Positions 33,507 to 52,939 of a stretch of DNA of 64,000 nucleotides are shown piece after piece. Every line of letters begins with the position of its first letter. The stretch's first letter is position 1. Below the pieces are notes generated by a model. That model made no database searches and was not told where the DNA came from. It saw only the letters and a list, made by a program, of their open reading frames with translations. The translations under genes were made by a program, and so were the position numbers. The DNA lies in contig JBFGLM010000009.1 of the NCBI GenBank assembly GCA_041576165.1, forward strand, positions 50,441-114,440, written 5' to 3'. The DNA comes from Acidimicrobiia bacterium. Its GTDB lineage: Bacteria > Actinomycetota > Acidimicrobiia > Spongiisociales > Spongiisociaceae.

Positions 33507-34340
33507 TCAGCTTGATCGAGCAGTGTTTCGAGCCGTGACCTGTTCGGAGGGAAACGCGCCTGCTATCCCGCCGTAGAGGCCGAGTGCGATGTCGGCGCCT
33601 GACGTCGCCCCGGCTGCGGCGAGCCGTTGACATGCCGCCTCGCACTCACCTGCGTCACCGGCGATCGCCGCCGTAAAGATCTCGTGGACGGGAGCGATGG
33701 CTTGTCCGACGGCCGCACCGCGGAGGTAGGCCAGGCTGATGGTGCTCGTCAGGTGTTGAGCCTCCCGGCCGATCTCCCAGCTGCCCGGGGCGAGCCGTCC
33801 CAAGGCCACCGAGGCCACCAGGAAACCGGCGATCACATCATCGCCCGCGGGCGTAAGCCCAGGACCGAAACCGAGCAGGCTCCCGCGAGCGTCGAGGTCG
33901 AGCGGGTCGGCAGCCCGCGACAGTCGCGACAGGCGTGCCGAATAGGGCGGGGCCATCAGCGCCGACGCCTGTGCGTGCGGGGCAAGCGCCGTCGTGAGTA
34001 TGGGACTGGCCGCGGCTACTCGAGCAGGGTGCGGCAGCCGGCCAACCCACGATGCGCCACCGGCCAGATCCACACGCCGGCCGTCTAGTTTGATCCGGTC
34101 GCCGGTGACCGGCATTTCGCTTCCGGGCTCCGCCTGCAGTTGATCGGCTGTGGTCGTGACGTGGATCGGACCCGGTGGAACGTCCCGGCTCGTCAGCACG
34201 ATCACCTCATCACCGGATTGTGCGTACACGGCCCGCGGGAAAGCTGCGATCACCCGCCACGGCCCCATCATCCGTCGCAATGCCGTCATGGCCATGGAAC
34301 CGATTGTCGTGGCTGTGACCGAGGTATTGGGGAGCATCAC
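33507..34340 (-). CDS. DUF2877 / YlbF (AllH-like) protein
   Basis: LLGFGPGLTPAGDDVIAG, TSTIS, GATSGADIALG. Confidence 0.85.
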   Translation of the reverse strand: MMLPNTSVTATTIGSMAMTALRRMMGPWRVIAAFPRAVYAQSGDEVIVLTSRDVPPGPIHVTTTADQLQAEPGSEMPVTGDRIKLDGRRVDLAGGASWVGRLPHPARVAAASPILTTALAPHAQASALMAPPYSARLSRLSRAADPLDLDARGSLLGFGPGLTPAGDDVIAGFLVASVALGRLAPGSWEIGREAQHLTSTISLAYLRGAAVGQAIAPVHEIFTAAIAGDAGECEAACQRLAAAGATSGADIALGLYGGIAGAFPSEQVTARNTARSS

Positions 34341-35764
34341 GCCAGCTTCTCATCGAGCGCCAGGAGAGCATCCCGGAACACGGACATTGGAGCCACAGCC
34401 ACGCCGGCCCCCACCTGGCCGCTGCCGTCCGACTTGTGGAGGATGCCCGTGTTGATGGCAGGGGCGATCTGCAACTCGATCACCTTCCGCACGTCGACCC
34501 CGACAGGCGTGCCGGCGTAATCGAGCACCGGCAGTGTGAACCGGGAGCTGCGCCCCAGTGCGATGTGCGCCATCTCCTCGGTCACAGCCCGGGCGTCGGC
34601 CATGGTGCCGCCCACGAATGCTGCCACCGCCGGAGCGCCCGCCGCCGCGGGTCCCCCGAGTCCGATCAGCTCCAGCACGGCGCTGTCCCCGATGTCGGGA
34701 GCGCTCGACTCGGGCCCGTAGCCCGAGTAGTACATCGCATGCTCAACCGGCGGAGCGGATGCGGTGAACCAGCCATCACCGGCCCCTGTCACCTGCACGC
34801 CGAACGTGGTGCCGTTCCTGGCCATGGTGACAACTGCGCTGGAGTCTGGGACTTCGCTTGCCCACGCAGTCGTCACCTTGGCGGCGGCCATCGCGATGTT
34901 GAGGAAGAACAGGTGGTTACTGCTCCAGTAGCGGGCGAATTCGGACAAGCCGGCATGGGCGGTCTCGACCAGATCGGCGAACAGACTCCGAAGCAACAGG
35001 TTCCCGGTTGCCTGGGTCCGCATGTGGAGGTCGTCGCCCATCTGCACACCCTGGGCGGCCAGGGCGAAGACGTTGACCGGCTCGGCGGTCCGCAGCGCGG
35101 CGGCGAGCAGCGGGCCCCCTACGTCGGCGAGCCACCGCAAGCGATCCACCGCCTCGGGGGCGTCGACCCCGAACCAGGCGGTCCTGCCCGGGCCCTGGTT
35201 GAGCGGCGAGAACGCCCGGCGATCGTCCATGCCGACCACAAACATGGGAGTGGACGGGCCCATCGCCGACGCCATCGGCACCACCGTGGAGTGATGGTTG
35301 GCGGAACCCAGCGTGACGCGGCCTCCGGCCACCAGGCCGGACGCTTCCTCGTGATCTGCGGCCCAGCCTTCGGCCAATATGGCGGCGAGCACCGACCGGC
35401 GCAGAGGATCGCAGAAGTCCGGCCAGTCGAGCGGCGGTCCACAATGCAGGATCGTGCGGTCCGTCATGTTCGGAACGACTTCGCGAGCGGGCCGCACATC
35501 CGTCAACAGCGGCGTCGCAGTATCCAGGCGGCGGAAGACCTCGGCATTTGCCCGGTCGATGCGCTCGGCGTGTTGTCCGAACAGCCGGGTCAGCGCGGCG
35601 ATCGCCGCCTCGTCGCCGGCGGCCGGAATTCGCCAATCCACCGAGACGACTTCGTGGCCCTGGGCGCGCACAGCCTCGGCGAGGAGGTCGAGACCGACGT
35701 TCACCACCCGCACCTCCTGCGGCAGACGGGGCGGTGTCGGCTGGTCGATAAACTCGTCACTCAT
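34337..35764 (-). CDS. DUF1116 / YlbE-YahG (AllG-like) protein with fused N-terminal VNVGL..VDW segment
   Basis: ILHCGPP, MGDDLHMR, FFLNIAMA, MARNGTTFG, PDIGDSA, PAINTGILH, GQVGAG. Confidence 0.9.
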   Translation of the reverse strand: MSDEFIDQPTPPRLPQEVRVVNVGLDLLAEAVRAQGHEVVSVDWRIPAAGDEAAIAALTRLFGQHAERIDRANAEVFRRLDTATPLLTDVRPAREVVPNMTDRTILHCGPPLDWPDFCDPLRRSVLAAILAEGWAADHEEASGLVAGGRVTLGSANHHSTVVPMASAMGPSTPMFVVGMDDRRAFSPLNQGPGRTAWFGVDAPEAVDRLRWLADVGGPLLAAALRTAEPVNVFALAAQGVQMGDDLHMRTQATGNLLLRSLFADLVETAHAGLSEFARYWSSNHLFFLNIAMAAAKVTTAWASEVPDSSAVVTMARNGTTFGVQVTGAGDGWFTASAPPVEHAMYYSGYGPESSAPDIGDSAVLELIGLGGPAAAGAPAVAAFVGGTMADARAVTEEMAHIALGRSSRFTLPVLDYAGTPVGVDVRKVIELQIAPAINTGILHKSDGSGQVGAGVAVAPMSVFRDALLALDEKLA

Positions 35765-36140
35765 GCGAACGGTTTCCTCCGTGTGGGAGGGTGATTATCG
35801 ATGCCGCGTGTTCGTGCGGGATTTCGAGCTGGTGGTCGACGAACCCACCGAGGTCGGCGGCACCAATACCGGACCCCGTCCGACTGAATTGATGTTGTCC
35901 GCCGTCGCCTCCTGTTTCGCACTCGCGATTGCCCACGTGGCCCGCAAGCACGACCGGCCGCTCGATGATCTGCAGGTCACCGCCTCTGGCGAGTACGACG
36001 GGCCCCGTTTCAGCAAGGTGTCGGTCATCGCGTCGTCCGCGATCCCCCAGGAGGACCTGCAATGGCTGGCCGATCGCGCCAGCCGCGTCTGCTACGTCTC
36101 GAACTCGTTGGGGTGCGACTTCGCTTATCGGGTCGAGTGA
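35763..36140 (+). CDS. OsmC family protein, antisense within the minus-strand operon
   Basis: VDEPTEVGGTNTGPRPTELMLSAVASCF...CYVSNSL. Confidence 0.85.
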   Translation: MRTVSSVWEGDYRCRVFVRDFELVVDEPTEVGGTNTGPRPTELMLSAVASCFALAIAHVARKHDRPLDDLQVTASGEYDGPRFSKVSVIASSAIPQEDLQWLADRASRVCYVSNSLGCDFAYRVE

Positions 36141-36141
36141 C

Positions 36142-37644
36142 TCAGACAGCACCTGCTACCGCCTTCGTGCGTTCCACAACGTCATGCTCGGCCTGGTCGA
36201 AGAGGTCGATGAACCGGCGGGCCCGTTCTCGGGCTGAGGTTGCCGTCTCGCGCACGTGACCCGCCATCCCAACGACTAGATCCGGCTTAGCTCCGCCCTG
36301 ACCATGCCGGGTCTGGACTATTTTGCGCGGATCGAGCACATCCCGCAGATCGACGTCTCGGAGGCCGATCGGGGAGCCCAGGATTTCGGCGGCAGCCTCG
36401 TCGATCAGCTCGCCCGTCATGTCGACCCCCCGCATTCCGGCGGCGCTCGCCCTCCGCACCGCGTTGCCAACCACCCGGTAGGCAGTCCGATAGTCGACGC
36501 CGGCCTCGAGCATCACTACCTCGGCCAGGTCGGTGGCCTGAGAAAAGCCGCCCTCGAGTTCGCTGTACAGGCGGGCGCGGTTGACCGATACGGTCGAGAC
36601 GACCTCGCGCATGAGCTCCGTGACCCGGAGGGCGAGATCCATCGCGCGGGGCACCTCGCCATAGGCGTAGATGTAGTTGTCGCTCCGCGCCGAGGGTGTC
36701 TTGATCACAGAGAGGAATCCGGCCAACCGCCCGATCAGCACCCCTGATGCGCCCCGCACGATCGACAGCGCGTACGGGTTTCGCTTCTGGGGCATCAGCA
36801 CGCTGGCCCGGGTGTACGGCCCGGCCAGATCGACGTAGTCGAACTCGGGGCTGGCCCAGATCTCGAGGTCCTCAGCGAGCTTGCTCTGATTCGAGACCAG
36901 GCTGGTAGTCGTCGACAAGACCGAGACCAACACGTCGGTCTGCCACATTGCGTCTCGGGTGTGTTCGATGATGCCTTCGAACCCGAGTGCATGGGCAAGG
37001 ACCTGGCGATCGGCCAGCAGCCGCGTGCCGTTGACACAGCCGGCCCCGCCGGGGCTGAGGTTCACCGACTGGAGCTCCGAGATGAGGCGCTCGATGTCGC
37101 GCAGCGCCGGCGGGGCAAATCCCAGCACGTAATGGCCGAACGTCGAGGGCTGGGCATGCTGTAGATACGTCTGATCCGGCATGTAGGTTTCGGCGTGATC
37201 AACCGCCAGATCGGCGAGCGCCAGGGCGAAATCGGCGCCGGCGCGAGCGACGTTCGCGCCCATCCGGCGCAGCACCACCCGCATGGCCACACGGGCGGCT
37301 TCCCGTCTCGGACGTCCGGCGTGGAGCCAGCCGGTTGCGTCTCCGATCTGAGCGGTGAAGTGCCGTTCCCGGCAGTTGTACGTCTCGCCGTAGGCAGGGT
37401 CGTAGGGAAACTCGTCCGCCGGGGTGGCGTGGGCATCGAGCAGTACCCGGGCAAGGTCGCGGAGAGCCGGCTTGGGCACCAGGTCGCGGGCCGCCAGGTC
37501 GAGGATGTGAGCCATGTCGGCCAGGTTGAGGCCGTGATGGAGGAACGGTGCGTCGTCGATCTCGGTCGCGAACCCGGCATCGATCAGCGTCTGTGCCGGA
37601 GCGAGGGAGGAGGGCCCTGCCAGCCGGTTGGTTACCTCGGTCAC
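36142..37644 (-). CDS. Argininosuccinate-lyase-like enzyme; candidate XcbC-type CoM biosynthesis lyase
   Basis: LHAGRPRRE, TYLQHAQP, ASVLMPQKRNP, ATDLAE; operonic with comA. Confidence 0.85.
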   Translation of the reverse strand: MTEVTNRLAGPSSLAPAQTLIDAGFATEIDDAPFLHHGLNLADMAHILDLAARDLVPKPALRDLARVLLDAHATPADEFPYDPAYGETYNCRERHFTAQIGDATGWLHAGRPRREAARVAMRVVLRRMGANVARAGADFALALADLAVDHAETYMPDQTYLQHAQPSTFGHYVLGFAPPALRDIERLISELQSVNLSPGGAGCVNGTRLLADRQVLAHALGFEGIIEHTRDAMWQTDVLVSVLSTTTSLVSNQSKLAEDLEIWASPEFDYVDLAGPYTRASVLMPQKRNPYALSIVRGASGVLIGRLAGFLSVIKTPSARSDNYIYAYGEVPRAMDLALRVTELMREVVSTVSVNRARLYSELEGGFSQATDLAEVVMLEAGVDYRTAYRVVGNAVRRASAAGMRGVDMTGELIDEAAAEILGSPIGLRDVDLRDVLDPRKIVQTRHGQGGAKPDLVVGMAGHVRETATSARERARRFIDLFDQAEHDVVERTKAVAGAV

Positions 37645-38609
37645 ATCGAATCCTTTCGCACGACCGCCTCGAGGATGGTCGCAGTGCCACCGGTATGCCA
37701 GAAGATGACCGGGCCACGGAGGTCGCCGGCCAGGCCCACCAAGGCGGCGAACGCTTTCGCCGTGTAGATGGGATCGAGCAGGAGCGACTCAGCGCGCCGG
37801 GCGAGGACGGCCGCGGCGACGGCCTTCCCCCACACCTTTCCATACCCGGGACCGCGGGCATCGACCACGTCAGGGACGTTCGATGGAGCCGAATTTCCGG
37901 CGAGGTCGCTGCACTCTTCGGCAAGCTGGTGGATCCGAGAGATGGCCTCGTCCTGGCTGCGGCTGACGGAGGCACCGACTAATGGCCAGTCGGCTCCAAC
38001 GGCGGAAAAGCCCGAGACGATCCCGGCCAGCGTGCCTCCGGACCCCACCGGAACCATTATCGCGGCGGGTTCAATGGCGGCTGTCCGGAGCTGGTCCGCC
38101 AGCTCGGTTGCGGCCCGGTGATAGCCCAGTGCCCCAACTGCGGTAGCTCCGCCGCGGGGAATGATGTACGGCGTGCCCCCGGCCGCTGCGATCTCGCTCG
38201 CCCGCGTACGCGCCAGCTCATCGACCGTTGACCGGTCCGGGTTGCCGGTGAAGTGAGCCACCGCCCCGCTCTCCTCCGCCAGTCGGAGGTTCACAGGGGG
38301 TGCGTCGGGTCGGCTCCCGTAGAGGATCAGCTCGCAGTCGAGCCCGAGCACTTCGGCGGCTGCAGCTGTGGTCTGGCACAGATTGGAGCGGGGTCCGCCG
38401 CACACGAGGATGGACGTCGCGTCAATCTCGCAGGCATCCGCCAGCAGAAACTCGAGCTTGCGGACCTTGTTCCCGCCCAGGCTGAAACCGGTCAGGTCGT
38501 CGCGCTTGATGTGAAGCGCCACGAGCCCGAGCCGCTCTGCGAGCCTGGGTGCGGGGTGCAGCGGCGTCGGATAGAGGCCGAGAGAAAGCGGCTCGACGTG
38601 CCCATTCAT
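37641..38609 (-). CDS. PLP-dependent D-cysteine desulfhydrase/ACC deaminase family; candidate XcbE
   Basis: PTPL, IKRDDLTG, GGNKVRKLEF, SN, GSGGTLAG, LDPIYTAKA, WHTGG. Confidence 0.9.
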   Translation of the reverse strand: MNGHVEPLSLGLYPTPLHPAPRLAERLGLVALHIKRDDLTGFSLGGNKVRKLEFLLADACEIDATSILVCGGPRSNLCQTTAAAAEVLGLDCELILYGSRPDAPPVNLRLAEESGAVAHFTGNPDRSTVDELARTRASEIAAAGGTPYIIPRGGATAVGALGYHRAATELADQLRTAAIEPAAIMVPVGSGGTLAGIVSGFSAVGADWPLVGASVSRSQDEAISRIHQLAEECSDLAGNSAPSNVPDVVDARGPGYGKVWGKAVAAAVLARRAESLLLDPIYTAKAFAALVGLAGDLRGPVIFWHTGGTATILEAVVRKDSM

Positions 38610-39979
38610 GGCCACTCGTCAGACTCGTCCTGGCGCTCGGTGGTCGCACGAGCGACCGCCAGGTCGACCATCTCCGCCGCTGCATGTACCGGAGGCGTGT
38701 CCAACAGCTCCTCGATCGCCTCGAGAGTCAGGTGCTCGGCGAGTGCGGGTTGGGACAGGATGGTTTCTTTCAAGTCACGCCCTGCCGACCAGCCGTCGCG
38801 CAGCGCGCTGAACAGCGCGTCCTGGGCACGGTGCTTGCCCAGCGATGTTGCCAGGGTTGCCAGTACCGCTTCTGATGCCCAGTAACCTCGAGTCTGATCG
38901 AGGTTGCGCCGCATGGCGTGCGGATCGACGTCGAGACTGCCCACGAGGTCCCGAGTGATCCGCAGCGAGGCACCCGTCAGGAGGCAGATCTCGGGAAACG
39001 CCACCCACTCCACCTTCCATCCTCGCCCGTCACGCTCGTGGCTCTGTACCGATCCGTCCAGAATCGTCTGCGCATGGGAACGGATCAGCCGCCCGAGGGT
39101 GACGAGGTGCTCGGATCCTTCCGGGTTGCGTTTGTGGGGCATAGTGATGCTGCCGACCGCCGCTGTGGAGCCGGCTTCGCCGAACTCGCCGATCTCCGGA
39201 CGTTGGAGCTCATAGATTTCGTCGCCGATCCGAGCGAGGGTTGTGGCGATCATCGCCATGAGCAGACTGAATTCGACGACCCGGTCGCGGGTGGTCGTCC
39301 AGGAGACCACGGGGTCGAACAGCCCCAGCAGGCTGCAGTAATCGGCGCGTACCGCCAGGCCGTGGTCGCCGAAGAACGCAAGAGTGCCGACAGAACCGGC
39401 GAGTTGGCCGACCAGCCACCTGGTCTGACCCTCTCTCAACCGATGCAGGTGACGACGTATCTCGTCGGCCCAGGTTGCGATTTTGAAGCCGGCCGTGATC
39501 GGGGACCCAATCTGTCCGTGTGTCCGGCCGGCCATGACCGTGGATCGGTGGCGGACCGCCATATCGAGGAGGTCCTTCTCGATTGCGCGCAGGTCGCGCC
39601 ACGCGACGGCGCCCATTCGTTTCATCGTCAGTGCGGCCCACGTGTCGGTGATGTCCTGCACGGTGGCGCCGTAGTACACGTACTGCGAGACGTCGGGAGG
39701 CAGCACCTGCTCGAGTCCCCGAATCAGGCCCAGCGTGGAATGAGACGTCGCCCGGGTTTCGGCTGCGATGTAGTCGAGGTCGAGACGATCCGTGTGGGCG
39801 TGGGTCGCGATCTGGGCGGCGGCTGCGTGCGGGATCAGCCCGTTCTTCGCCTGCGCATCGGCAAGCGCTACCAGGATGTCAAGCCAGGCGTCCAACCGCC
39901 CGGCCTCGCTGAAATGATCGCGCAACTCGTCCGTTCCCCAGAGGTGCGCATACATGCTGGAGTCAGCGATGCGGGACAT
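38606..39979 (-). CDS. Adenylosuccinate-lyase/PcaB-like enzyme; candidate XcbD
   Basis: GATVQDITDT, MAGRTHGQ, GSITMPHKRNP, HERDG. ATG 39979. Confidence 0.87.
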   Translation of the reverse strand: MSRIADSSMYAHLWGTDELRDHFSEAGRLDAWLDILVALADAQAKNGLIPHAAAAQIATHAHTDRLDLDYIAAETRATSHSTLGLIRGLEQVLPPDVSQYVYYGATVQDITDTWAALTMKRMGAVAWRDLRAIEKDLLDMAVRHRSTVMAGRTHGQIGSPITAGFKIATWADEIRRHLHRLREGQTRWLVGQLAGSVGTLAFFGDHGLAVRADYCSLLGLFDPVVSWTTTRDRVVEFSLLMAMIATTLARIGDEIYELQRPEIGEFGEAGSTAAVGSITMPHKRNPEGSEHLVTLGRLIRSHAQTILDGSVQSHERDGRGWKVEWVAFPEICLLTGASLRITRDLVGSLDVDPHAMRRNLDQTRGYWASEAVLATLATSLGKHRAQDALFSALRDGWSAGRDLKETILSQPALAEHLTLEAIEELLDTPPVHAAAEMVDLAVARATTERQDESDEWP

Positions 39980-39980
39980 G

Positions 39981-40892
39981 TCACCGTGGCGACGGGTCGA
40001 CCGGCTGCGAGGCCTCGGCTCGGGGGGAGCTCGACGCACTCCCGGCCAGCGCGACTGCGGCCTCCAGCCCGGCCCGCACGCCGTCCAGCGTCGATCCCCA
40101 AGGAACGTAAACCGTGCCACTGCGCACTTCCATGCCCGATTCGAGCAAGCAGCATTTTGTGAGGATGACTGCGCCATCGGGTGCTGGCCGCCGCTTCGGG
40201 CAGAAATCGACGATCGGAGCGGCCTCGCCGTAGAACCACGTGTGGATCTGCTGAGACCGGGTGCAGCCAATCAAGGTCCAGTCGCGCTTGGGAGGGCGCT
40301 GATCGAGATAACTGATGTCGGCGCGGCCTCGGTCGGACGCCGCGCCCGCACACGGTAGGAGGTACGGACCGTCTCCCACGATGAGGGCGTCCAGATCCTG
40401 GATGTCGGCGATCAGCCGGATCGGGGGGAGATCCTCGGAGACGTCGATGATCCGTTGTGCTTGGTTCAACAACTTCGCCGGATGGGGTGGAGTCACGTCC
40501 CGTATGACGATCTCCAGGGGTTGGGGATCCACGATGAAGCTCACATGTTCATATGCGCCGACGACGACGACGCAGCGCCTGCCCGGCGCCTCTCGGTGGG
40601 CGACCGCCGCCAGGTTCGACGGGATGCCCGTATCGAGGTCGGGATCCCGAACCAGAACGGTTTCTTCAGGACTGGCGACCAGCTCCACCCGAGTCACGGG
40701 GGAGAACAGTGGCTCCTCCGAAGCCTTGTCTACCGCGATCAGCGCGGTGTCGTCGCCGGAGATCACCACGATGTATGACGTACGTCGGTACACCTCACGC
40801 CCGGTGAAGAATTGTTCCAGCGCGTCGGGGTGGAGATCGAAATCGACTTCGGACACGGCAACGTTGCGGTACTGGTCGGGAGTGAGGTTCAT
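39981..40892 (-). CDS. Uncharacterised Cys/His-rich protein
   Basis: 303-aa ORF tightly linked on both sides (ATGA overlap with comA, 1-nt gap to the lyase). Motifs EHVSF, LPC, GCTRSQQIH, FCP, KCCLLE. Confidence 0.8.
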   Translation of the reverse strand: MNLTPDQYRNVAVSEVDFDLHPDALEQFFTGREVYRRTSYIVVISGDDTALIAVDKASEEPLFSPVTRVELVASPEETVLVRDPDLDTGIPSNLAAVAHREAPGRRCVVVVGAYEHVSFIVDPQPLEIVIRDVTPPHPAKLLNQAQRIIDVSEDLPPIRLIADIQDLDALIVGDGPYLLPCAGAASDRGRADISYLDQRPPKRDWTLIGCTRSQQIHTWFYGEAAPIVDFCPKRRPAPDGAVILTKCCLLESGMEVRSGTVYVPWGSTLDGVRAGLEAAVALAGSASSSPRAEASQPVDPSPR

Positions 40893-44385: not shown

Positions 44386-45229
44386 AGAGCTCCTCGAAGT
44401 TTTGATGGAACACCCGGTTCTTCAGCTCCTCGCTGACGTCGGTGCCCTCGATCTTCCAGTACTCGCCCCAGAAGTCGCTCCAAGGCTCATCCGAGGCGAA
44501 CAGCACCCGGTCCTCGCCGACCCCCCGCTTCTCGATTTCGTGGAGCAACCACCGGGTGCCGAACCCGACGGTCCAAGTCGTATCGGCATAGACCTTGTAG
44601 CCCTCTTCAACCCAGTCGAGGAAGCGGGGCACCAGTTTGATGTGCCCGCTCACGCCACCGCCGAAATGTACAAGGTACATCTTCACGCGTTTGCCGTACT
44701 CCTCGACCAGGGGGATGTAGTTGTTGATGTCCGACCCGCCGCCGGGGCTCGTGTGGAAGTGGAACACCAGGTCGTGCTCTTCGGCCGCATCGAAACAAGC
44801 ATCCGCCACTTCGCGCGTGTCATCGTCCCATTCGTTCGGGTTCGGGTTTCCGCCCAGGAGGAACGTCGTCTTGAGTGCGACCACCCGGCCCTCGCCGGCA
44901 TGGCCGAGCGATTCGAGCGTCATGTCCTTGTTCTGTGGAAGGAACGAGACCCACAGCGCGCCCGCCAGCCGGTCGCTGGTCGTCACCGCGTCGAGCATGA
45001 CCTCGTTCAGCGAGAACGGCTGCGACTGGACGGGGATTCCGTAATTGGGGATCACCAGACCCCGCTCAACGCCATACGAATCCAGATGTTTGATATAGGC
45101 CGCCGTGTCCGGAAAGTCATAGACGGTGGGGCTCACCGGTTCCTTCAAGTCGTAGAACTGCCACGGTTCCATGGCGCCGATGTGGCTGTGTCCGTCGATC
45201 ACTGGTCGGGATACCTTCGGGGAACTCAT
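44369..45229 (-). CDS. Metal-dependent amidohydrolase (TIM barrel)
   Basis: IDGHSHIG, HFHT, VHFGGG, LFASDEPW. GGAGG SD. Confidence 0.88.
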   Translation of the reverse strand: MSSPKVSRPVIDGHSHIGAMEPWQFYDLKEPVSPTVYDFPDTAAYIKHLDSYGVERGLVIPNYGIPVQSQPFSLNEVMLDAVTTSDRLAGALWVSFLPQNKDMTLESLGHAGEGRVVALKTTFLLGGNPNPNEWDDDTREVADACFDAAEEHDLVFHFHTSPGGGSDINNYIPLVEEYGKRVKMYLVHFGGGVSGHIKLVPRFLDWVEEGYKVYADTTWTVGFGTRWLLHEIEKRGVGEDRVLFASDEPWSDFWGEYWKIEGTDVSEELKNRVFHQNFEELYGAAW

Positions 45230-45555
45230 GAACCATCCTCCCTCGATCGCCAGGTGAGTGCCCCTTCGTGCCGGTGGCGGGGCTCACCGGGTAGGTCGCT
45301 GCGAAAATGCCCGGCTGCCAGCTGCCGAGGTGGCCATTTACTTTCCGCAACGTCCATCTTCTATCTGACACACACTATAAACCACTGGTCCCTGTGGCTG
45401 CAGTGACGGCAGTGCCGCCGGTACACGCTGTACGTGCCGAGCTCGGCGCCGATTCCGGCCCACAATTGTGGGACCGGCATCAACTATCCTCAACATTGCA
45501 TGGCTTTTGGTGGACGGCGCGGCGACGGGTGCTGCGATTCGGGACGAGACTCCCG

Positions 45556-46494
45556 ATGAGCACGGTGGTAGTGGCGCTCGGGGGCAACGCCCTCATCAAG
45601 CAGGGCGAGTCCGGCACGTACGAGGAACTCACAGCCAACGCCGATCAGATGGCGGCCGCGGTGGCCCAGGTCGCTGCGGCGGGGTTTCGTGTTGTCGTCA
45701 CTCACGGCAACGGGCCGCAGGTCGGAAACCTGGCCATCCAGCACCACCAATCGGCCGACACGGTCCCGGCGCTGCCCCTCCACCTGATCGGTGCGATGAC
45801 GCAGGGTTATCTCGGGAGCCTCATCGTGAGGGCGCTGGCCGATCGACTGCCGCAGCTCCGTGACCGATTGGTGGCGATCGTGACCCACGCACTGGTTGAT
45901 CTAGACGCGCCCGGCTCGGCCCAACCGACCAAGCCAATCGGACCATATCTGACGGCAGCCGAGGCAGAACAGGCCAGCGCGATGGGCTGGACGGTGGCGG
46001 AGGATGCGGGCCGCGGACTCCGCCGGATCGTCTCGTCTCCGCTGCCGCTGGGCATTGTGGAAGCTGCGGCGATCCGAACCCTCGTCGAGCAGGATTTTGT
46101 GGTGGTTGCCGGTGGCGGTGGCGGGATCCCGACCGCGGAGACGGACGCCGGGCTCGTAGGAGTGGATGCGGTGATCGACAAGGACCGACTGGCAGTGCAC
46201 ATCGCACGGTGCGTTGACGCCGACGCCCTGGCGCTGGTCACCAGCGTCGACCGGGTCTTGGTCGGTTTCGGGACGCCCGACCAACACCCCGTGGCCGAAC
46301 TCACGACGGCCGAGGCACGAACCCACCTCGCTGGCGGCGAGTTTCCGCCCGGAAGTATGGGTCCGAAGATAGAAGCTGCGATCGACTTCGTTGAAGGTGG
46401 AGGCGGCTACGCCATAATCACCTCGGCCGCCCGCCTGTCGGATGCCCTGGCCGGGGAGGGAGGCACTCGAGTGGTGAGTTCGTCCCGCCCATGA
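45556..46494 (+). CDS. arcC: Carbamate kinase
   Basis: VVALGGNAL, THGNGPQVG, PTKPIGP, GGGGIP, AVIDKD, GSMGPKIEA. Confidence 0.95.
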   Translation: MSTVVVALGGNALIKQGESGTYEELTANADQMAAAVAQVAAAGFRVVVTHGNGPQVGNLAIQHHQSADTVPALPLHLIGAMTQGYLGSLIVRALADRLPQLRDRLVAIVTHALVDLDAPGSAQPTKPIGPYLTAAEAEQASAMGWTVAEDAGRGLRRIVSSPLPLGIVEAAAIRTLVEQDFVVVAGGGGGIPTAETDAGLVGVDAVIDKDRLAVHIARCVDADALALVTSVDRVLVGFGTPDQHPVAELTTAEARTHLAGGEFPPGSMGPKIEAAIDFVEGGGGYAIITSAARLSDALAGEGGTRVVSSSRP

Positions 46495-48029
46495 GCAGCA
46501 GCGTTCGTGTCCTCGAGAACACCTATGTCGACTCCGTGAAGCTGCTGGCCGGCACGCGAGCGATTCTCGCAACCAGCGGCATCGAGTGGGGAGCGGTCCT
46601 CACCGGGACGCCTGCCAACCGTGAACTACTGATCGATGCTGGTTTCGATCCGGCGGAACTATCAGGCTTTGGCGCCAACGATCTCGTGATGGCGGCCCGT
46701 GGACGTGCTGCGGATGAGGGCTTTCAGGCGGCCGAGGAAGCGATGTTCGCAGGCCCATCGTCCGCCTCGAGTTTCGCCGGACCCGTCACCAGAAGCCTCG
46801 ACGAGTTCGCCGACGGCCGGCCGAGGCCCAATCTCGCAGTGATCTCGGTTGCCGGACCGTACGCGGCTCTCGAAGCGCACAAAGCACTCAGCGCCGAGAT
46901 GGACGTTCTGCTGTTCAGCGACAACGTACCTCTCGAAGACGAAGTCGCCTTGAAGGATCGGGCTGCCGCCCTTTCTCGATTCGTGATGGGACCGGGGGCC
47001 GGTACTGCCCTCATTGACGGAGTCGGTCTCGGCTTCGCCAACGCCGTCCGTCGGGGCAAGATCGGGGTGGTGGCGGCGGCCGGAACCGGCGCGCAAGAAG
47101 TGATGAGTTTGATCCATCGGGCCGGCCTGGGCGTCTCTCAGGTCATCGGCGTTGGTGGTCGGGACCTCGGTGAGGCGGTGGGAGGCCGGATGACCGCGCA
47201 GGCGATCAAAGCCCTCGAGGCGGATGAGGCCACACAGGTGATCCTGCTGGTTTCAAAGCCCCCGTCCCCAGAAGTCGCTGCCCGAATCCTGAATCGACCC
47301 GGCAGCAAGGCGCTGGTCGCGAGCTTGATCGGCCTCGACACCCCATTGGATGTGGCGCAGCATGTCATGGTTACCACCGATCTCGAGTCGGGTGTGGAGG
47401 CGGCAGTCGCAGCTGCGGGGGGCCGTTTCGAGCCCGCCTCGGCTGAGCTGGTGGAGTCGGTCGACGCGGTGGCCCTATCCATCGACGATGCACGATCGAC
47501 TATCCGAGGGTTGTTCTCGGGCGGCACGATGTGCTTCGAAGCGCTGACGCTGCTGGCCGAGCAAGGACTCTCGGTTCACTCCAACACCCCACTCCGTCCC
47601 GAGCTGTCGCTCGACGAGGCCGGACCCGACAGCCACATCTGCCTCGACCTGGGCGAGGAGGAGTACACGCGGGGGCGGCCGCATCCGATGATCGACCCCG
47701 AGGCGCGCGCCGAGCTGATCGTCCGAGAAAGTACGTTTCCGGAGACGGCGGTGGTAGTCATCGACGTCGTCCTCGGCTACGGCAGCCACCCGGACCCGGC
47801 CGGACAGCTGGCGCCGGCCTGCGCGGAGGTGACGGAGATCACAGGCGGGCCTCAGGTGATTGCGTACGTGCTGGGCACCGACGAAGACCCGCAGCGACTG
47901 ACCGACCAGCGCCGGAAGCTGGAGGAGGCCGGTTGCATCGTCGCGCCGACCAATGCCCGGGCCGCCCTGGCCGCCGCCGCGATCAGCCTGAGGCGCCCAG
48001 AGGTGGCCGGATTTCGGAGAGGGACATGA
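46491..48029 (+). CDS. fdrA: FdrA family protein (AllF-like, succinyl-CoA synthetase alpha-like)
   Basis: YVDSVKL, GTPAN, FSDNV, MGPGAGT, GFAN, GVGGRDL, GLFSGGT, DLGEEEYTRGRPHPMIDP, GYGSHPDP, GTDEDPQ. Confidence 0.92.
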   Translation: MSSSVRVLENTYVDSVKLLAGTRAILATSGIEWGAVLTGTPANRELLIDAGFDPAELSGFGANDLVMAARGRAADEGFQAAEEAMFAGPSSASSFAGPVTRSLDEFADGRPRPNLAVISVAGPYAALEAHKALSAEMDVLLFSDNVPLEDEVALKDRAAALSRFVMGPGAGTALIDGVGLGFANAVRRGKIGVVAAAGTGAQEVMSLIHRAGLGVSQVIGVGGRDLGEAVGGRMTAQAIKALEADEATQVILLVSKPPSPEVAARILNRPGSKALVASLIGLDTPLDVAQHVMVTTDLESGVEAAVAAAGGRFEPASAELVESVDAVALSIDDARSTIRGLFSGGTMCFEALTLLAEQGLSVHSNTPLRPELSLDEAGPDSHICLDLGEEEYTRGRPHPMIDPEARAELIVRESTFPETAVVVIDVVLGYGSHPDPAGQLAPACAEVTEITGGPQVIAYVLGTDEDPQRLTDQRRKLEEAGCIVAPTNARAALAAAAISLRRPEVAGFRRGT

Positions 48030-49201
48030 AGGTGGCGTTGGTCACCTACTCGACGAAGCCACGCGGCGGGGTCGTGCACACCTTGGAGTTGGGCGAAGCG
48101 CTGCTGGCCGCCGGGGTCGACGTTCATGTCATTGCGCTGGGCGATGAATCGGCCGGGTTTTTCCGGACGACCAACATACCCCACTCCTTCGTCCCGGCTC
48201 CAGCGTGGGCCGACACGCTCGATGAACGGGTATTCCGATCAGTTGACGCGCTGGCCGATGGGCTCCGCCGCCAGGTGGGCGCGTTCTCAGTCCTCCATAC
48301 CCAGGATTGCATCGCGGCCCGGGCCGCGGCCCGGGTCCGGGACGAGCTGGAGCCGGCGGACCCCAACCGGCCGGTGGTCATCCGGACGGTGCATCACGTG
48401 GACGATTTCACGACACAGGCGCTGATCGACTGCCAGCGCCAGGCCATCATCGAGCCGGATGAGCTGATTGTCGTGAGCCGCCAGTGGCAGAACATCCTTC
48501 TGGCCGAATTCGGGCGCAAGGCCACGGTCATCTACAACGGAGTCGATCCGGAGCGGCTGGCGCCGCCACCTGGTTTCGATCGCGCCCGCCTGCGGGCCGA
48601 GATCGGAGCGACGGCCCGGTTCCTATTCCTGACCGTCGGAGGTATCGAGCCCCGCAAAGCCACGCGAGAAATGTTCGAGGCCCTCGCCGAACTCAAGGCC
48701 ACGGCACCGGAGCCACCCATCCTGGCCATCATCGGGGGGCACTCCTTTCAGGACCATGCCGCATACCGAGAAGCGGCCCTGATGCGGGCCGAGGAACTGG
48801 GTTTGTCACTCGACCGGGATGTAGTACAGCTTGGCACTGTGTCGGACGCCGACCTGGCGGCCTGGTACCACGCGGCCGACGCCTTCCTGTTCCCCTCCGT
48901 GAAGGAAGGATGGGGTCTGGTCGCGATGGAAGCCCTCAGCGTCGGGTTACCCCTCATTGCGTCCGACATACCCGTGTTTCGCGAATACCTGGATCCGGAT
49001 GAGACCGCCCTGCTGGTGCCACCCGGCGATGTGGGGGCGCTGGCTGCGGCCATGAGGCGCCTGGTCGAGGATCCCGAAACCCGAATGCAGCTGGCGGCGG
49101 CCGGCCGGGAAATGGTCGAGCAGTTCACATGGCACGCCGCTGCGTCGCGACATCGATCTGTCTACGCCCGGATCGTCTCCGACGCCGGCCTGGCGGTGTG
49201 A
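48026..49201 (+). CDS. GT4 glycosyltransferase, MSMEG_0565 family
   Basis: YSTKPRGGVVHTLELGEAL, HTQDCI, RTVHHVDDF, GGIEPRK, GGHSFQD, PSVKEGWGL. Confidence 0.92.
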   Translation: MKVALVTYSTKPRGGVVHTLELGEALLAAGVDVHVIALGDESAGFFRTTNIPHSFVPAPAWADTLDERVFRSVDALADGLRRQVGAFSVLHTQDCIAARAAARVRDELEPADPNRPVVIRTVHHVDDFTTQALIDCQRQAIIEPDELIVVSRQWQNILLAEFGRKATVIYNGVDPERLAPPPGFDRARLRAEIGATARFLFLTVGGIEPRKATREMFEALAELKATAPEPPILAIIGGHSFQDHAAYREAALMRAEELGLSLDRDVVQLGTVSDADLAAWYHAADAFLFPSVKEGWGLVAMEALSVGLPLIASDIPVFREYLDPDETALLVPPGDVGALAAAMRRLVEDPETRMQLAAAGREMVEQFTWHAAASRHRSVYARIVSDAGLAV

Positions 49202-49217: not shown

Positions 49218-49823
49218 TCAGGTCGCCTTGATGGCGGCTATGGCGGTGAGCCATTCCCGTCGGTCGCCGAACTCGGTTCGATCGGGGCGGGCGTTCGTTC
49301 CGGCAAACTCACCGGTGGCGGGATCGAGCTGAAGCGTTTCGATGCCGTACAGCGGAAGGAACGTCGTGGGGTCGACATCGATGTACGTGTGCAGGCCAAG
49401 CCCGTCCGGCAAACGCATCTCGATACGGCGGAAGCCCGTCCCACCCGCACCACTCTCATCTCCGGTCTCGTCCAGCGTGATCCAGCCCTCGTCCGCCTGG
49501 GCGATGCGTCGTTCGGCCTCGGCCTTGGCCCGCTCGCCGGAAAGCTCCCGGTAGCGGCCGCTGAAGGCGGCGTCGATCAACAGCAGTGCCACCTCGGGGG
49601 AGGGAGGCGGCCTCTGCAAACTTTCAACCGCTGCTGCGAGCCGGTCGTGGCGCTCCGCATAGGCCGATACGAGATCATCGACGCTGGTTATGGCGGTGAG
49701 GTCATCGGTCATCGCCCGCACCAGTTCGAGATTTGCCTCGTACTGGTGCGGGTTGACGACGACCATCGGGTACAGCTTGGCTTCGGCCGCTCGCCATTGG
49801 CCGAGCAGAGCCTCTAGATCCAT
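49218..49823 (-). CDS. Hypothetical protein in the Nit1C-like operon
   Basis: ORF MDLEALLGQWRAAEAKLYPMVVVNP... with coding-like composition, downstream of the MSMEG_0572-like gene. Confidence 0.7.
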   Translation of the reverse strand: MDLEALLGQWRAAEAKLYPMVVVNPHQYEANLELVRAMTDDLTAITSVDDLVSAYAERHDRLAAAVESLQRPPPSPEVALLLIDAAFSGRYRELSGERAKAEAERRIAQADEGWITLDETGDESGAGGTGFRRIEMRLPDGLGLHTYIDVDPTTFLPLYGIETLQLDPATGEFAGTNARPDRTEFGDRREWLTAIAAIKAT

Positions 49824-49845
49824 GCTGTGGTGAGCGGGCCCAGGC

Positions 49846-50331
49846 CTACAGCGTCCAGGTGGTGAGGACCAGCGCTTTGTTGCGATAGGCGGTGAGGGTC
49901 GCGTCCAGCACGTCCAGCGGATTGATTGGCTGGACACCTTCCATCATGTCTGCTTCCCGCATGCCGTAGAGCATCCCCGCCGAGAAACGACAGGCGTACA
50001 CCTTGGCACCCTCATCGAGCAGCGTCTGGATTTGGCGGTTGTAGGCCATTGCACCGGGAAACGCCTCGTCTCCTACCTTCGGAAAACCGCGCGACGCGGA
50101 AGCCATGAGAGAGCCGGGGCCGTACAGCACGAGGTGGGTGTCGAAGCCTTTCCGGTTGATGCGGGTTGTGGTCAGCATGTTGACCAATCCGACTGACCCT
50201 TCGAAGGGCACTGTGTGCATGAATACCCAGGCCTGCTCACCCTCCTCGGCCTGGATGTCCGGGAAGACCTTGTGTTCGTAATCGACGATCGCGTCTCCGG
50301 GCTGTACTCGCTCGCTTGCGAAATCTGCCAT
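49846..50331 (-). CDS. MSMEG_0572/Sll0783 (NitB) family DsrE-like protein
   Basis: VDYEHKVFPD, HTVPFEGSVGLVNMLT, RGFPKVGDEAFPG, YACRF, TTWTL. AAGGAG SD. Confidence 0.93.
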   Translation of the reverse strand: MADFASERVQPGDAIVDYEHKVFPDIQAEEGEQAWVFMHTVPFEGSVGLVNMLTTTRINRKGFDTHLVLYGPGSLMASASRGFPKVGDEAFPGAMAYNRQIQTLLDEGAKVYACRFSAGMLYGMREADMMEGVQPINPLDVLDATLTAYRNKALVLTTWTL

Positions 50332-50507: not shown

Positions 50508-50753
50508 TTACTTGACGGACCTCCTCTCCCACGATTGACGGTGACTGCCGGGCATCGCCCGCATGATCGATCTCCGCACCGGCCACGGCAGCACGCGGTA
50601 GACGGGGACGAACACATGCCGCCAGAAGAGTGCGTTGGCGCTCTTCGGTCGAACCGGCCCTGCTCCGCCGCGATGGCGTTTGGCCATCTCGACCTGGGCC
50701 GCCTCCAGCAGGTAGTGCTCCGCGTTCTGACGCAGCCAGTAGAAGAACCGCAC
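50508..50753 (-). CDS. Small basic, aromatic-rich hypothetical protein (81 aa)
   Basis: GTG start 4 nt after the oxidoreductase stop: RFFYWLRQNAEHYLLE...FWRHVFVPVYRVLPW...MPGSHRQSW. Confidence 0.7.
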   Translation of the reverse strand: MRFFYWLRQNAEHYLLEAAQVEMAKRHRGGAGPVRPKSANALFWRHVFVPVYRVLPWPVRRSIMRAMPGSHRQSWERRSVK

Positions 50754-50757
50754 GGGA

Positions 50758-52080
50758 TCAGAGCTTCCCGAGCGCGTTTTGGGCGGCGAGCGCCATGGGC
50801 TCGTTGAGCGCTCCGATCGGAGGCGAGTAGACGTTTTCCATCCAGGCGATGTCGTCGATGGGAATCTTCGCTCGCATCGCCATCGCCAGGAAGTCAGCCC
50901 GCTCCTTGATGCCTTCCAATCCGGCCATTTGGGCGCCAACCAAGGTCTTGGTGTCGGGATCGACCAGCAACTTCACTCGGATCACGGCCCAGCCCGGGTA
51001 GTAGCGGGCTCTCGAGATACCGTCCGCCAAGCCGACGATGTGGGGTATGCCGAGGGCCGTCGCCAGCGTCTCTCCGAAGGAGACCCCGCCGATCGTCCAC
51101 GTACCGGCGACCATTCCCCACGGCACCTGCACCGCCTGGTAAGCGCGCTCGCCGCCACCCGCGTTGACGCCGGCCACCTTGCCTTGCGAGTACGCGTGGC
51201 TGCCGGATAGTCCGTTGATCGGAACCTGGGTGAGCGCGTGGGGAATCTCGACACAGTCACCCGCCGCCCACACGTTCTCGGCGGAAGTAGCCATGCCGTC
51301 GTCGACGATTATGCCGCCGGTCGACCCGGTCTTGATGCCCGCGTTGGTCGCCAGCTCGGTGTTGGGTGTTTTGTGAGTCGCGACGACGACAACGTCGGCC
51401 GGCAACTCGCCGGCAGACGTTGCAACTGCTCGCACGCTCGTCTCACCCACGAACCGCTCCACACTTGTGCGCATGTGCATGTGAATGCCGAGGTCACGCA
51501 AGGACTGCTCGACTGGCTCCATGATCTCGGGGTCGGCCACATCCGAGAGGGGCCAGCCGCCCGGATCAACGAAATGGGTCTCGAGACCACGATGGGCGAA
51601 TGCCGTCGCCATCTCGACGCCGATTGGCGAGGCGTCGACGACCACGGCCACTCTTGCCTCGTCGAGCACCTTGTCGAACTCCATGGCTCGACGGATGTTC
51701 TTGACATAATGCAAGCCGGCGAGGTCGCTGCCGGGTATGCCGGGATCTTCGTAGTTCCAGCCGGTTCCCAACACGAGCCTGTCGTAGTGGACCGTGCCCT
51801 CGCCGGCCACCTCGACGGTTTGAGCGCTGGTATCGACTGCCTCGACTCGGGTCGTGTATCTGATGTCGAATCCGGCATCGGCGTAGAACTGCTTGTCTTG
51901 CAGGAAGAGATCCTCGAACTGTTCGATCTCCCGCCCGTGTACGAACGGGATCCCGCAGGGGCTGTACCCGACATCCTCGTACTCGGTGTAGAGGATGACT
52001 TCCGCGTCCGGTGCCGCGCCCTTCGCGCCTCCCTGCGCGCCGATGCCGGCAGCGCCTCCTCCCACGACGACTATCCGCAT
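50758..52080 (-). CDS. FAD-dependent pyridine nucleotide-disulfide oxidoreductase (NADH oxidase/CoA-disulfide reductase family)
   Basis: GGGAAG, single redox Cys in YSPCGIP, AAGDC, RYYPG, YSPP. Confidence 0.9.
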   Translation of the reverse strand: MRIVVVGGGAAGIGAQGGAKGAAPDAEVILYTEYEDVGYSPCGIPFVHGREIEQFEDLFLQDKQFYADAGFDIRYTTRVEAVDTSAQTVEVAGEGTVHYDRLVLGTGWNYEDPGIPGSDLAGLHYVKNIRRAMEFDKVLDEARVAVVVDASPIGVEMATAFAHRGLETHFVDPGGWPLSDVADPEIMEPVEQSLRDLGIHMHMRTSVERFVGETSVRAVATSAGELPADVVVVATHKTPNTELATNAGIKTGSTGGIIVDDGMATSAENVWAAGDCVEIPHALTQVPINGLSGSHAYSQGKVAGVNAGGGERAYQAVQVPWGMVAGTWTIGGVSFGETLATALGIPHIVGLADGISRARYYPGWAVIRVKLLVDPDTKTLVGAQMAGLEGIKERADFLAMAMRAKIPIDDIAWMENVYSPPIGALNEPMALAAQNALGKL

Positions 52081-52315
52081 GCCGAATGCCTCCCGAACAA
52101 CGACCCTACCCGTTGGTGCCGGCTGGTGATTGACGTCGGCAGGAGGTTCAGTTTCCCGTTACGACGTGTTGCGACCGGCGGACCCGACGGCGGGTGACGT
52201 GATTACTAAAGTATGGGAACTGTTTCTCATAGTATCAGGCACACCTGGGGGGAGTCGGGCAGAGCCAGGAGAGCACAACCCCGGGCAATTTGATCATTGG
52301 CGCGGTGTGAGATCG

Positions 52316-52939
52316 TCAGATCGGCCGCAGCGCCAGCCACACCGCCTTGGCTACCTCGCCGGATGGGTTGTGCCACCGGTGCATCAGATCGCCCCGGAAA
52401 TGCACTGACTCTCCGGGCCGCAGGTTGACGGTTTGGTCCTCGAATTCGAAGCAGAGTTCGCCTTCGAGCAGGTAGACCAATTCTTCCCCGGGGTGCTTGG
52501 TCGGGCCGGGACCCGATTCGCTCCCGGGCTGTGCCGACGCATAGGCCCCCGCCAGGAAGAACCGGCCGTAGGCGCCGGAGATGCTCTTGAGGTCCAACCC
52601 GGGAATCGCCGTGAGCACGGGGCGACGATTCTCTGGAGTGGTGTGCACCGCGGGCCGGTCCTGTTCCTCGTCCTCCGAGATGAAGTAGCTGACGGGCCGG
52701 TTGAGTGCTGCGGCCAGTTTCATCAGCGTCGTGATGGTGGGCACCATGCCGTTGCGTTCGATCTTGTGGATTGCCGCGGCAGACACGTCGGCCAGCTTGG
52801 CGAGTTGCTGCAGCGAATGACCCTTGCGAGTTCGCATGAGCCGCACCTTGGCCCCGATGCCATTGATCACCTCGTCGAGGCTGTTGGCCTCGTCAGGCGC
52901 ATCGGTCGAGGATGCAGATGCGTCAACCGTTTCAGACAT
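52316..52939 (-). CDS. XRE-family HTH regulator with C-terminal cupin sensor
   Basis: IGAKVRLMRTRKGHSLQQLAKLADVSAAAIHKIERNGMVPTI; HPGEELVYLLEG...GESVHFRGDLMHRWHN. Confidence 0.93.
   Translation of the reverse strand: MSETVDASASSTDAPDEANSLDEVINGIGAKVRLMRTRKGHSLQQLAKLADVSAAAIHKIERNGMVPTITTLMKLAAALNRPVSYFISEDEEQDRPAVHTTPENRRPVLTAIPGLDLKSISGAYGRFFLAGAYASAQPGSESGPGPTKHPGEELVYLLEGELCFEFEDQTVNLRPGESVHFRGDLMHRWHNPSGEVAKAVWLALRPI

Follow-up and report, generated by a model that had tools for sequence, protein, structure and literature searches.

Why should genes for the synthesis of coenzyme M (CoM) lie within a gene cluster of the nitrogen-starvation type? This question is raised by a 64,000-nt stretch of an Acidimicrobiia genome bin (assembly GCA_041576165.1, contig JBFGLM010000009.1, positions 50,441 to 114,440), hereafter called the window. 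Pfam and NCBIfam scans of its long open reading frames (ORFs) identified a block of 21 genes between positions 33507 and 52945, arranged in transcription units, about seven in number, whose direction alternates. The block combines five xcb-like genes, a nitrilase-less core of the Nit1C/gpr cluster, and homologues of AllF, AllG and AllH with a carbamate kinase (CK). Also present are a flavoprotein of the CoA-disulfide reductase (CoADR) type, an OsmC-like protein, two proteins without a family (o201 and o81) and an XRE-cupin regulator. To our knowledge, bacterial CoM is known solely from alkene and epoxide metabolism. The 21 genes are one conserved functional unit, and the block is found in many uncultured soil and marine actinobacteria. 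It is read here, tentatively, as a nitrogen-starvation and redox pathway with its own thiol, CoM, and with recovery of ammonia and ATP via carbamoyl phosphate. The first-pass annotation of this DNA knew of no description of the combination, and full-text literature searches on parts of it brought up no paper that links CoM genes with Nit1C or AllFGH.

That the modules work together is indicated chiefly by the conservation of the gene set through rearrangement. Among 401 genomes of the window's class, the XcbA family was found in 10 and the radical SAM (rSAM) family of the Nit1C core in five. Both families occur in four of these genomes: G000, which is the bin of the window, G327, G235 and G359. 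Neighbourhoods were mapped by tblastn on fetched contig stretches. The full set in the gene order of the window is found in G327 and in contig L002 of an Acidimicrobiia metagenome-assembled genome. In G235, the set is complete in a changed order, all within 26 kb, and G359 displays a third order (rSAM-GNAT-AllG-AllH ... ComA, FdrA, flavoprotein). A phylum-level scan revealed the full set, in further gene orders, in three genomes from two more families (G514, G488 and G698), as well as a partial set on a 10.7-kb contig of G564; G501 and G600 were also matched. A metagenome search that used an rSAM-subfamily profile brought up at least 533 relatives; the top 80 are 59–84% identical. A scan of genome contigs with the XcbA protein alone as query returned one locus only.

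Twenty-three loci of at least 16 kb, from genomes and metagenomes, were compared gene by gene; near-duplicates among them (L002/L047, L118/L121 and L065/L074/G514) make the independent lineages fewer than 23. The rSAM, the GNAT protein and an AIR-synthase-like protein (AIRS) are present in 23/23, AllG in 22, the glycosyltransferase (GT) and o201 in 21, and FdrA in 20. CK, the flavoprotein, MSMEG_0572, ComA, XcbA and XcbD are each found in 18 of the 23, XcbC and Amidohydro_2 in 17, XcbE and OsmC in 16, and the XRE-cupin regulator in 15. Five loci are without xcb genes; two of these stop at a contig edge where xcb is expected, and three represent a true variant. The set occurs in at least seven distinct gene orders, so that the co-occurrence in other genomes on which the first-pass annotation had staked its proposal was indeed found.

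The genes of the block are given below by position. Bits with a cut-off denote the NCBIfam score against the cut-off of the family, and Pfam matches are given as PF identifiers.

33507-34340, minus strand: AllH-like subunit (DUF2877); PF11392, 78 bits; 4-nt overlap with the allG stop
34337-35764, minus strand: AllG-like subunit (DUF1116); PF06545, 214 bits
35763-36140, plus strand: OsmC-like (thiol peroxidase family) protein, antisense between xcbC and allG; PF02566, 60 bits; NF041052, 54 bits
36142-37644, minus strand: XcbC-like lyase of the aspartase/fumarase superfamily; best NCBIfam match NF052535, 419 bits (cut-off 575)
37641-38615, minus strand: XcbE-like pyridoxal phosphate (PLP) enzyme; NF052537, 264 bits (cut-off 450); CuyA, 232 bits
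38606-39979, minus strand: XcbD-like enzyme of the adenylosuccinate lyase family; NF052536, 577 bits (cut-off 600); ATG at 39979
39981-40892, minus strand: XcbA-family protein; NF052538, 310 bits (cut-off 150); PF24830
40889-41746, minus strand: ComA/XcbB phosphosulfolactate synthase; PF02679, 256 bits; TIGR03849, 232 bits (cut-off 280)
about 41780-42730, plus strand: sll0787-type AIRS (PurM superfamily); PF00586, PF02769; TIGR04049, 246 bits (cut-off 321)
42741-43268, minus strand: MSMEG_0567/Sll0786-family GNAT; TIGR04045, 103 bits (cut-off 68)
43213-44385, minus strand: MSMEG_0568-family rSAM; TIGR04043, 373 bits (cut-off 303.7)
44369-45229, minus strand: Amidohydro_2 metal enzyme; PF04909, 61 bits
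45230-45555, no strand: divergent intergenic region of 326 nt with presumed promoters, from the sequence
45556-46494, plus strand: CK; TIGR00746, 330 bits; NF009007, 280 bits (cut-off 266)
46491-48029, plus strand: FdrA/AllF-like subunit; NF004760, 407 bits (cut-off 433); CoA_binding and Ligase_CoA domains
48026-49201, plus strand: MSMEG_0565-family GT4 glycosyltransferase; TIGR04047, 357 bits (cut-off 260)
49218-49823, minus strand: o201, conserved protein of about 201 residues; from conservation; AlphaFold2 (AF2) pLDDT 91
49846-50331, minus strand: MSMEG_0572/Sll0783-family (DsrE-like) protein; TIGR04044, 214 bits (cut-off 110)
50508-50753, minus strand: o81, conserved basic protein of about 81 residues; from alignment
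50758-52080, minus strand: CoADR/NADH-oxidase-like flavoprotein; PF07992, 159 bits; TIGR03385, 237 bits (cut-off 579)
52316-52945, minus strand: XRE-HTH/cupin regulator (PuuR-like); PF01381 and PF07883; NF007408, 67 bits

The first-pass annotation had described about 20 tightly packed genes with many 4-nt overlaps and an XRE-cupin regulator at the edge, which agrees with the 21 genes, the regulator at 52316-52945 and the 4-nt overlaps in six same-strand pairs (AllG/AllH, XcbE/XcbC, XcbD/XcbE, ComA/XcbA, CK/FdrA and FdrA/GT). Its three interleaved modules were recovered by Pfam and NCBIfam, with every named gene in the position given for it; the AIRS and OsmC-like genes had been missed. CK and fdrA form one unit with the MSMEG_0565 glycosyltransferase, as had been claimed, and for CK the ATG at 45556 yields the usual N-terminus. 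DUF1116 and DUF2877 do lie downstream of the comA operon, as had been noted, but they do not simply continue it, since the opposite-strand OsmC-like gene intervenes. A LacI regulator (32115-33173) stands at one end of the block and a subtilase (53337-55109) at the other.

Two minus-strand ORFs, 41759-42580 and 35757-36152, were considered as unknown genes and rejected as antisense artefacts on the basis of stop codons in homologues, antisense-frame composition and plus-strand Pfam matches. The OsmC-like plus-strand gene is more conserved than the antisense "orf131" at the same place. Long open antisense frames in this 65% GC DNA give conserved tblastn matches of 35–42% identity, so that they might wrongly be taken as new genes. 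At 35762-35765, allG (minus strand) and the OsmC-like gene (plus strand) have start codons that share 2 nt, which leaves no space for an intergenic promoter; in other loci this gap is about 57 nt or less. AllG and AllH may perhaps be transcribed by read-through from xcbC, antisense to OsmC. An Rfam scan of 33000-53500 at E ≤ 0.1 gave no match, including in 45230-45555, and a repeat scan of four intergenic regions, that region among them, revealed nothing beyond weak palindromes.

What do the five xcb-like enzymes make? All five genes are present, in the order comA-xcbA-D-E-C. The best NCBIfam match of XcbA, XcbC, XcbD and XcbE is in each case the corresponding Xcb model. XcbA exceeds its cut-off, and ComA/XcbB belongs to its family by a PF02679 match of 256 bits. 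In addition, five cysteines are invariant in 22/22 aligned XcbA sequences of both the cluster type and the epoxide type. The Xanthobacter CoM pathway is reported to have been biochemically reconstituted (PMC9457059), and by homology to it ComA/XcbB, XcbC, XcbD, XcbE and XcbA would make CoM, or a very close sulfonate thiol, from phosphoenolpyruvate (PEP), sulfite and cysteine. Judged from these homologies, the product is likely to be CoM itself. FastTree phylogenies of XcbA, XcbC, XcbD and XcbE, midpoint-rooted, each placed the sequences from this type of cluster in one clade separate from the epoxide-type sequences.

That separate clade, together with the 37–42% identity of the Xcb proteins to the characterised Xanthobacter Py2 enzymes (38% for XcbC), would also suit a different sulfonate of the cysteate or sulfopropionate type, which the xcb-like enzymes would make or degrade and which would be the substrate for the rest of the cluster. 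XcbC, XcbD and XcbE score under their cut-offs (419/575, 577/600 and 264/450 bits), and XcbE matches the D-cysteate sulfo-lyase CuyA at 232 bits against 264 for its own model, which is in line with such a sulfonate. This explanation is nevertheless quite unlikely, given that the five genes stand together in the order known from the CoM-using Nocardioides JS614, that XcbA passes its cut-off with all five invariant cysteines, and that an Xcb model is the best match for each of the four proteins. In locus L131 (G698, a genome of four contigs), ComA and XcbA at 4477-6067 are each split into two overlapping fragments whose frames differ, owing to frameshifts or assembly indels. A preprint has reported archaeal-type comABCDE genes without known use in Desulfobacterota; that gene set is different from xcb.

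Is the CoM then used for epoxides? No orthologue of Xanthobacter EaCoMT or 2-KPCC was found in the whole bin, where the best matches are just 27.6% and 27.8% identical, and the PF02332 diiron monooxygenase gave no match in G000, G327 and G235. Six Acidimicrobiia genomes with xcb and without the rSAM served as a positive control (G336, G182, G390, G378, G342 and G366; loci L012-L025; identities against Xanthobacter Py2). EaCoMT adjoins xcb in 6/6 of them (76–79%) and 2-KPCC in 5/6 within the stretches fetched (64–67%); HPCDH-like (R/S) SDRs are present as well, and PF02332 was detected in 2/3 of the epoxide-type genomes searched. CoM-dependent alkene and epoxide metabolism seems to be common in the family of these six genomes. 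The joining of a full CoM pathway to Nit1C/gpr genes, thiol-redox enzymes and a carbamoyl-phosphate/ATP module suggests that CoM serves some purpose here besides epoxide breakdown.

The bin itself may be a mix of two organisms. Its 161 contigs total 5.1 Mb, and its contamination is 7.5%. Five other genomes of its family measure 2.3–2.8 Mb; these five carry an epoxide-type xcb locus instead, and the cluster of the window is closest to that of G327, from another family. A mixed bin would favour the view that the modules are independent neighbours, joined by chance or by an assembly error, or that the CoM genes serve an epoxide pathway elsewhere. This view is extremely improbable. The gene set recurs in at least seven arrangements across genomes and metagenomes, and no EaCoMT, 2-KPCC or diiron monooxygenase was found in the bin, against positive controls in relatives; epoxide-CoM enzymes elsewhere in the genome, which the first-pass annotation had considered as an explanation of the CoM genes, did not come to light.

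What kind of system surrounds the CoM genes? The rSAM (MSMEG_0568), GNAT (MSMEG_0567), MSMEG_0572 and GT (MSMEG_0565) proteins, all over their NCBIfam cut-offs, are shared with the Nit1C/gpr clusters, for which the reference forms are Pseudomonas nitBCDEFGH, Synechocystis sll0783-0787 and M. smegmatis MSMEG_0565-0572. The canonical Nit1C cluster carries a nitrilase and supports cyanide assimilation (PMC11049912), and that report describes the roles of the non-nitrilase genes as not established. In M. smegmatis, according to a second report, nitrogen starvation raises gpr expression more than 500-fold via GlnR; gpr is both necessary and sufficient for GlnR-dependent peroxide resistance, and it raises NADPH/NADP (PMC6039565). 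The peroxide phenotype fits what the window adds, namely genes for supplying a thiol, for reducing thiol disulfides and for an OsmC-family protein. The cluster contains no Nit6803-type nitrilase (TIGR04048), and nothing in the whole bin matches this family better than at 171 bits, against a cut-off of 503. The MSMEG_0569 flavoprotein (TIGR04046) has no match in the window and none over the cut-off in the bin, and no MSMEG_0570 or Pnap_2097-family protein was found in the window cluster.

The rSAM contains an invariant CX8CX2C motif and an invariant C-terminal CX2CX2C motif. The Amidohydro_2 protein keeps its metal ligands, with HxH, H157, H159, H188 and D247 invariant, and its AF2 model (pLDDT 90) is nearest in fold to ACMSD, LigI and IDCase (TM about 0.6). 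Neither Amidohydro_2 nor MSMEG_0572 has sequence relatives in the PDB. In loci without Amidohydro_2, o201 adjoins the rSAM directly, and no nitrile hydratase was found among the ORFs tested. In G235 (L027), a DDE transposase (DUF772 and DDE_Tnp_1) at 10285-11439 lies between rSAM and o201, the place of Amidohydro_2 elsewhere.

The AIRS is matched best by the sll0787 family (TIGR04049, 246 bits against 321) and lies on the strand opposite to the rSAM, as it does in 21/23 long loci. Its second-best NCBIfam match is methanogenesis marker 2 (181 bits), a family of CoM-using archaea. Among solved structures, it matches ThiL best (38 bits) and HypE second (35 bits). HypE dehydrates an S-carboxamide, formed from carbamoyl phosphate, to an S-cyanide. 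Nit1C clusters in general might, in the manner of HypF/HypE, turn S-carboxamide into S-cyanide and back while the unit is bound to a small thiol. Here the thiol would be CoM, and CoM-S-CN or CoM-S-CONH2 would be converted by AllFGH and CK to NH3, CO2 and ATP. The idea is improbable. If true, the cluster would permit an ATP-yielding assimilation of cyanide, thiocyanate or cyanate, and CoM, which already serves methanogenesis and epoxide carboxylation, would gain a third physiological role. The canonical nitrilase would then be the version without ATP yield, and the variant without xcb would use another nucleophile.

Are the remaining genes those of a thiol-based system? The flavoprotein has a single cysteine, Cys42, in the motif YSPCGIPF and is of the single-cysteine thiol-disulfide reductase type, which is what the disulfide cycling assigned to it in the first-pass annotation requires. 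It scores 237 bits against the cut-off of 579 for CoA-disulfide reductase (TIGR03385), with the redox Cys42 present. Its assignment to the MSMEG_0569 family was rejected, the protein being CoADR/NADH-oxidase-like by NCBIfam.

The other two added proteins, o201 and o81, are new protein families. For o201, no Pfam or NCBIfam match, no PDB sequence match and no usable Atlas match was obtained, and its confident model (pLDDT 91) has no fold match in the PDB (Foldseek E ≥ 0.03; best VIA Z 6.5). It is represented among 1.84 billion cluster representatives by 530 sequences at E ≤ 0.001 and 152 at E ≤ 1e-30. The o81 protein is basic, carries the motif WLRxNSE...PGSHRR and no cysteine, and has no family match. 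Identification of o201 as Pnap_2097 and of o81 as MSMEG_0570 was rejected, with an hhalign probability of 0.1 in each case (for o81, against annotated MSMEG_0570). Also rejected were a TusA-like nature of o81, which lacks cysteine, and a fusion to the flavoprotein, as the long ORFs are out-of-frame read-through.

What is recovered at the end of the pathway? The AllF, AllG and AllH families and CK are all present (NF004760, 407/433 bits; PF06545, 214 bits; PF11392, 78 bits; NF009007, 280/266 bits). Residues 8-58 of AllG match the C-terminal end (the last 50 residues or so) of E. coli-type FdrA. No allantoin-pathway genes were found within the cluster, the rest of the genome being outside the search. 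As a class, carbamate kinases mostly work in the direction of ATP formation. In E. coli, AllFGH is reported to be an oxamic transcarbamylase that converts oxalurate to carbamoyl phosphate and oxamate (PMC11326118), with the catabolic carbamate kinase AllK as its partner (PMC9843812). By analogy with E. coli, AllF/G/H of the window would phosphorolyse a carbamoyl end-product to carbamoyl phosphate, from which CK would form NH3, CO2 and ATP.

The first-pass annotation had gone further and made CoM the carrier of the C-N unit. Cyanide, cyanate or a nitrile would be converted to S-cyano- or S-carbamoyl-CoM, AllFGH would release carbamoyl phosphate and CoM by phosphorolysis, CK would turn the former into NH3, CO2 and ATP, and the flavoprotein would cycle the CoM disulfide. 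Such a scheme would agree with the position of AllG/H immediately downstream of xcb in most loci, with FdrA being a relative of the succinyl-CoA synthetase alpha subunit that has a CoA (thiol)-binding domain, with the single redox cysteine of the flavoprotein, with the AIRS belonging to the PurM superfamily with HypE second-best among solved structures, and with the nitrilase and cyanide assimilation of canonical Nit1C (PMC11049912). It has nonetheless become unlikely. Three genomes keep AllFGH, CK and the flavoprotein without an XcbA-family gene, and the scheme gives no role to the rSAM, GNAT, GT, MSMEG_0572, OsmC, o201 and o81. Moreover, Pfam and NCBIfam scans revealed no rhodanese, cyanase or nitrile hydratase in the window cluster, and Amidohydro_2, judged from its model, appears unlike nitrile or amide hydrolases and closer to decarboxylases and lactonases.

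These three genomes (G523, G759 and G709) belong to one family and carry a sister rSAM scoring 460–490 bits against the rSAM profile. They keep the flavoprotein, OsmC, GT, FdrA, CK, MSMEG_0572, o201, Amidohydro_2, GNAT, AIRS and AllG, and AllH was confirmed in G523. No XcbA-family gene was found anywhere in them, at 97–99% completeness. The carbamoyl module thus does not need CoM in general, which weakens CoM as a carbamoyl carrier unless another nucleophile replaces it. In G523, the place of xcb is taken by an LLM monooxygenase, an Orn/DAP-type PLP decarboxylase, a class I/II aminotransferase, a MarR regulator and an MMPL transporter. ComA homologues are encoded away from the cluster in each of the three; the one in G523 has an ATP sulfurylase and an FAD_binding_2 protein as neighbours. 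A taurine route for this variant (ComA, ComB, aminotransferase and decarboxylase) was considered and rejected, as no ComB (PF04029) was found in the five genomes searched.

Could the cluster be biosynthetic instead? The product would be a sulfonated, glycosylated and carbamoylated metabolite, either a new low-molecular-weight thiol like mycothiol or bacillithiol or an exported compound. CoM would be a building block, CK would make carbamoyl phosphate, and AllFGH would carbamoylate an acceptor. The GT4 is related to MshA and BshA, to which it has weaker matches (101 and 80 bits), and a GNAT is encoded in the same cluster; MshD of mycothiol synthesis is a GNAT. The NCBI GO labels on the canonical genes read "biosynthetic process". 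The aminotransferase, decarboxylase and LLM protein of G523 replace xcb as if supplying another building block, and Pfam and NCBIfam scans found no uptake transporter in the window cluster. L065 and L064 are bordered by ABC-2 exporter genes, L065 and G523 by MMPL genes. The genes beside some loci (L104 3412-4209, L065 1599-4309 and L064 10145-10909) include a CbtA cobalt transporter subunit, an ABC-2 exporter pair and an MMPL fragment, and all of these may be accessory transport functions. Biosynthesis is possible but rather doubtful. The exporters are not conserved, being found at three of the loci inspected and at none in the window; nitrogen spent on a carbamoylated product during nitrogen starvation would be odd; and the one AllFGH system that has been characterised is reported to work with a catabolic carbamate kinase (PMC9843812, PMC11326118).

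The preferred reading remains that of a nitrogen-starvation and redox pathway, in which the unit would be a nitrilase-less relative of the Nit1C/gpr cluster with its own cofactor supply and its own recovery of energy and ammonia. It starts from what was observed directly, namely the gene identities, their co-conservation, the separate xcb clade and the lack of epoxide enzymes. The CoADR-type flavoprotein would use NAD(P)H to keep the thiol, or its persulfide or disulfide, reduced, and the OsmC-like protein would spend the reducing power of the thiol on peroxides. The rSAM, GNAT, the AIRS as an ATP enzyme, Amidohydro_2, GT4, MSMEG_0572, o201 and o81 would transform some C-N small molecule, which would end in the carbamoyl compound handed to AllF/G/H. 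The XRE-cupin protein would sense a metabolite of the pathway. Every chemical step is inferred, as are the direction in which the carbamoyl module runs and the control of the cluster by nitrogen starvation in this organism.

Several observations weigh against this reading. The scores of XcbC, XcbD and XcbE under their cut-offs, and the nearly equal match of XcbE to CuyA, mean that the product is perhaps not CoM. A scan for GlnR boxes gave 10 sites against 8.7 expected, none of them at cluster promoters, with a Streptomyces consensus that may not apply here. The structural neighbours of the Amidohydro_2 model appear to be decarboxylases and lactonases, not amidases. The genomes without an XcbA-family gene show that CoM is dispensable or replaceable, and that its supply is an exchangeable accessory of a core always accompanied by the carbamoyl module. 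Also, the ABC-2 and MMPL exporters at three loci would be easier to explain if the cluster made a product for export than if it were catabolic.

The locus matters in several respects. A second, older-looking clade of the complete CoM pathway, tied to a different system and widespread in soil, sediment and marine metagenomes, implies a further role for CoM. The Nit1C/gpr cluster has been puzzling since 2005, being induced by nitrogen starvation and required by Pseudomonas to assimilate cyanide and by M. smegmatis to resist peroxide. With the genes added here, which stand for the supply and the reduction of a thiol, a peroxidase and a carbamoyl-phosphate/ATP module, the Nit1C chemistry is narrowed to testable options. 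AllFGH, in turn, gains a second context beyond allantoin catabolism.

How, finally, does the unit compare with known systems? In E. coli, allFGHK forms one operon, whereas in the window the module is divided into two units, CK-FdrA-GT and AllG-AllH behind xcb. The CoADR, NADH oxidase and persulfide reductase proteins and the OsmC/Ohr proteins belong to the same fold families as their window counterparts, with a single N-terminal redox cysteine; in contrast to known CoADR systems, the window flavoprotein lies far under the equivalog cut-off and is followed by the small o81, which has no counterpart there. In Xanthobacter Py2, Nocardioides JS614 and Mycolicibacterium, xcb belongs to alkene and epoxide degraders; in the window it is embedded in a Nit1C-type cluster, in a context without EaCoMT, 2-KPCC, HPCDH or alkene monooxygenase.

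On plasmids, annotated records with the rSAM carry canonical Nit1C genes, and one canonical plasmid cluster has the order 0572-nitrilase-rSAM-GNAT-AIRS-GT-0570-0569-Pnap_2097. All 513 plasmid records with an rSAM are less than 60% identical to the window type (39–43% in the 40 listed), against 59–84% within the type, and none is of this type. The AIRS gene is inverted relative to canonical Nit1C, and Amidohydro_2 lies directly upstream of the rSAM, in the place of the canonical nitrilase. In G239, an actinobacterial form of the M. smegmatis type in which no nitrilase was seen, Amidohydro_2 is also present, but beyond MSMEG_0572. To the Nit1C cluster the window adds about 13 conserved genes, namely the five xcb genes, AllFGH, CK, the CoADR-like flavoprotein, OsmC, o201 and o81.

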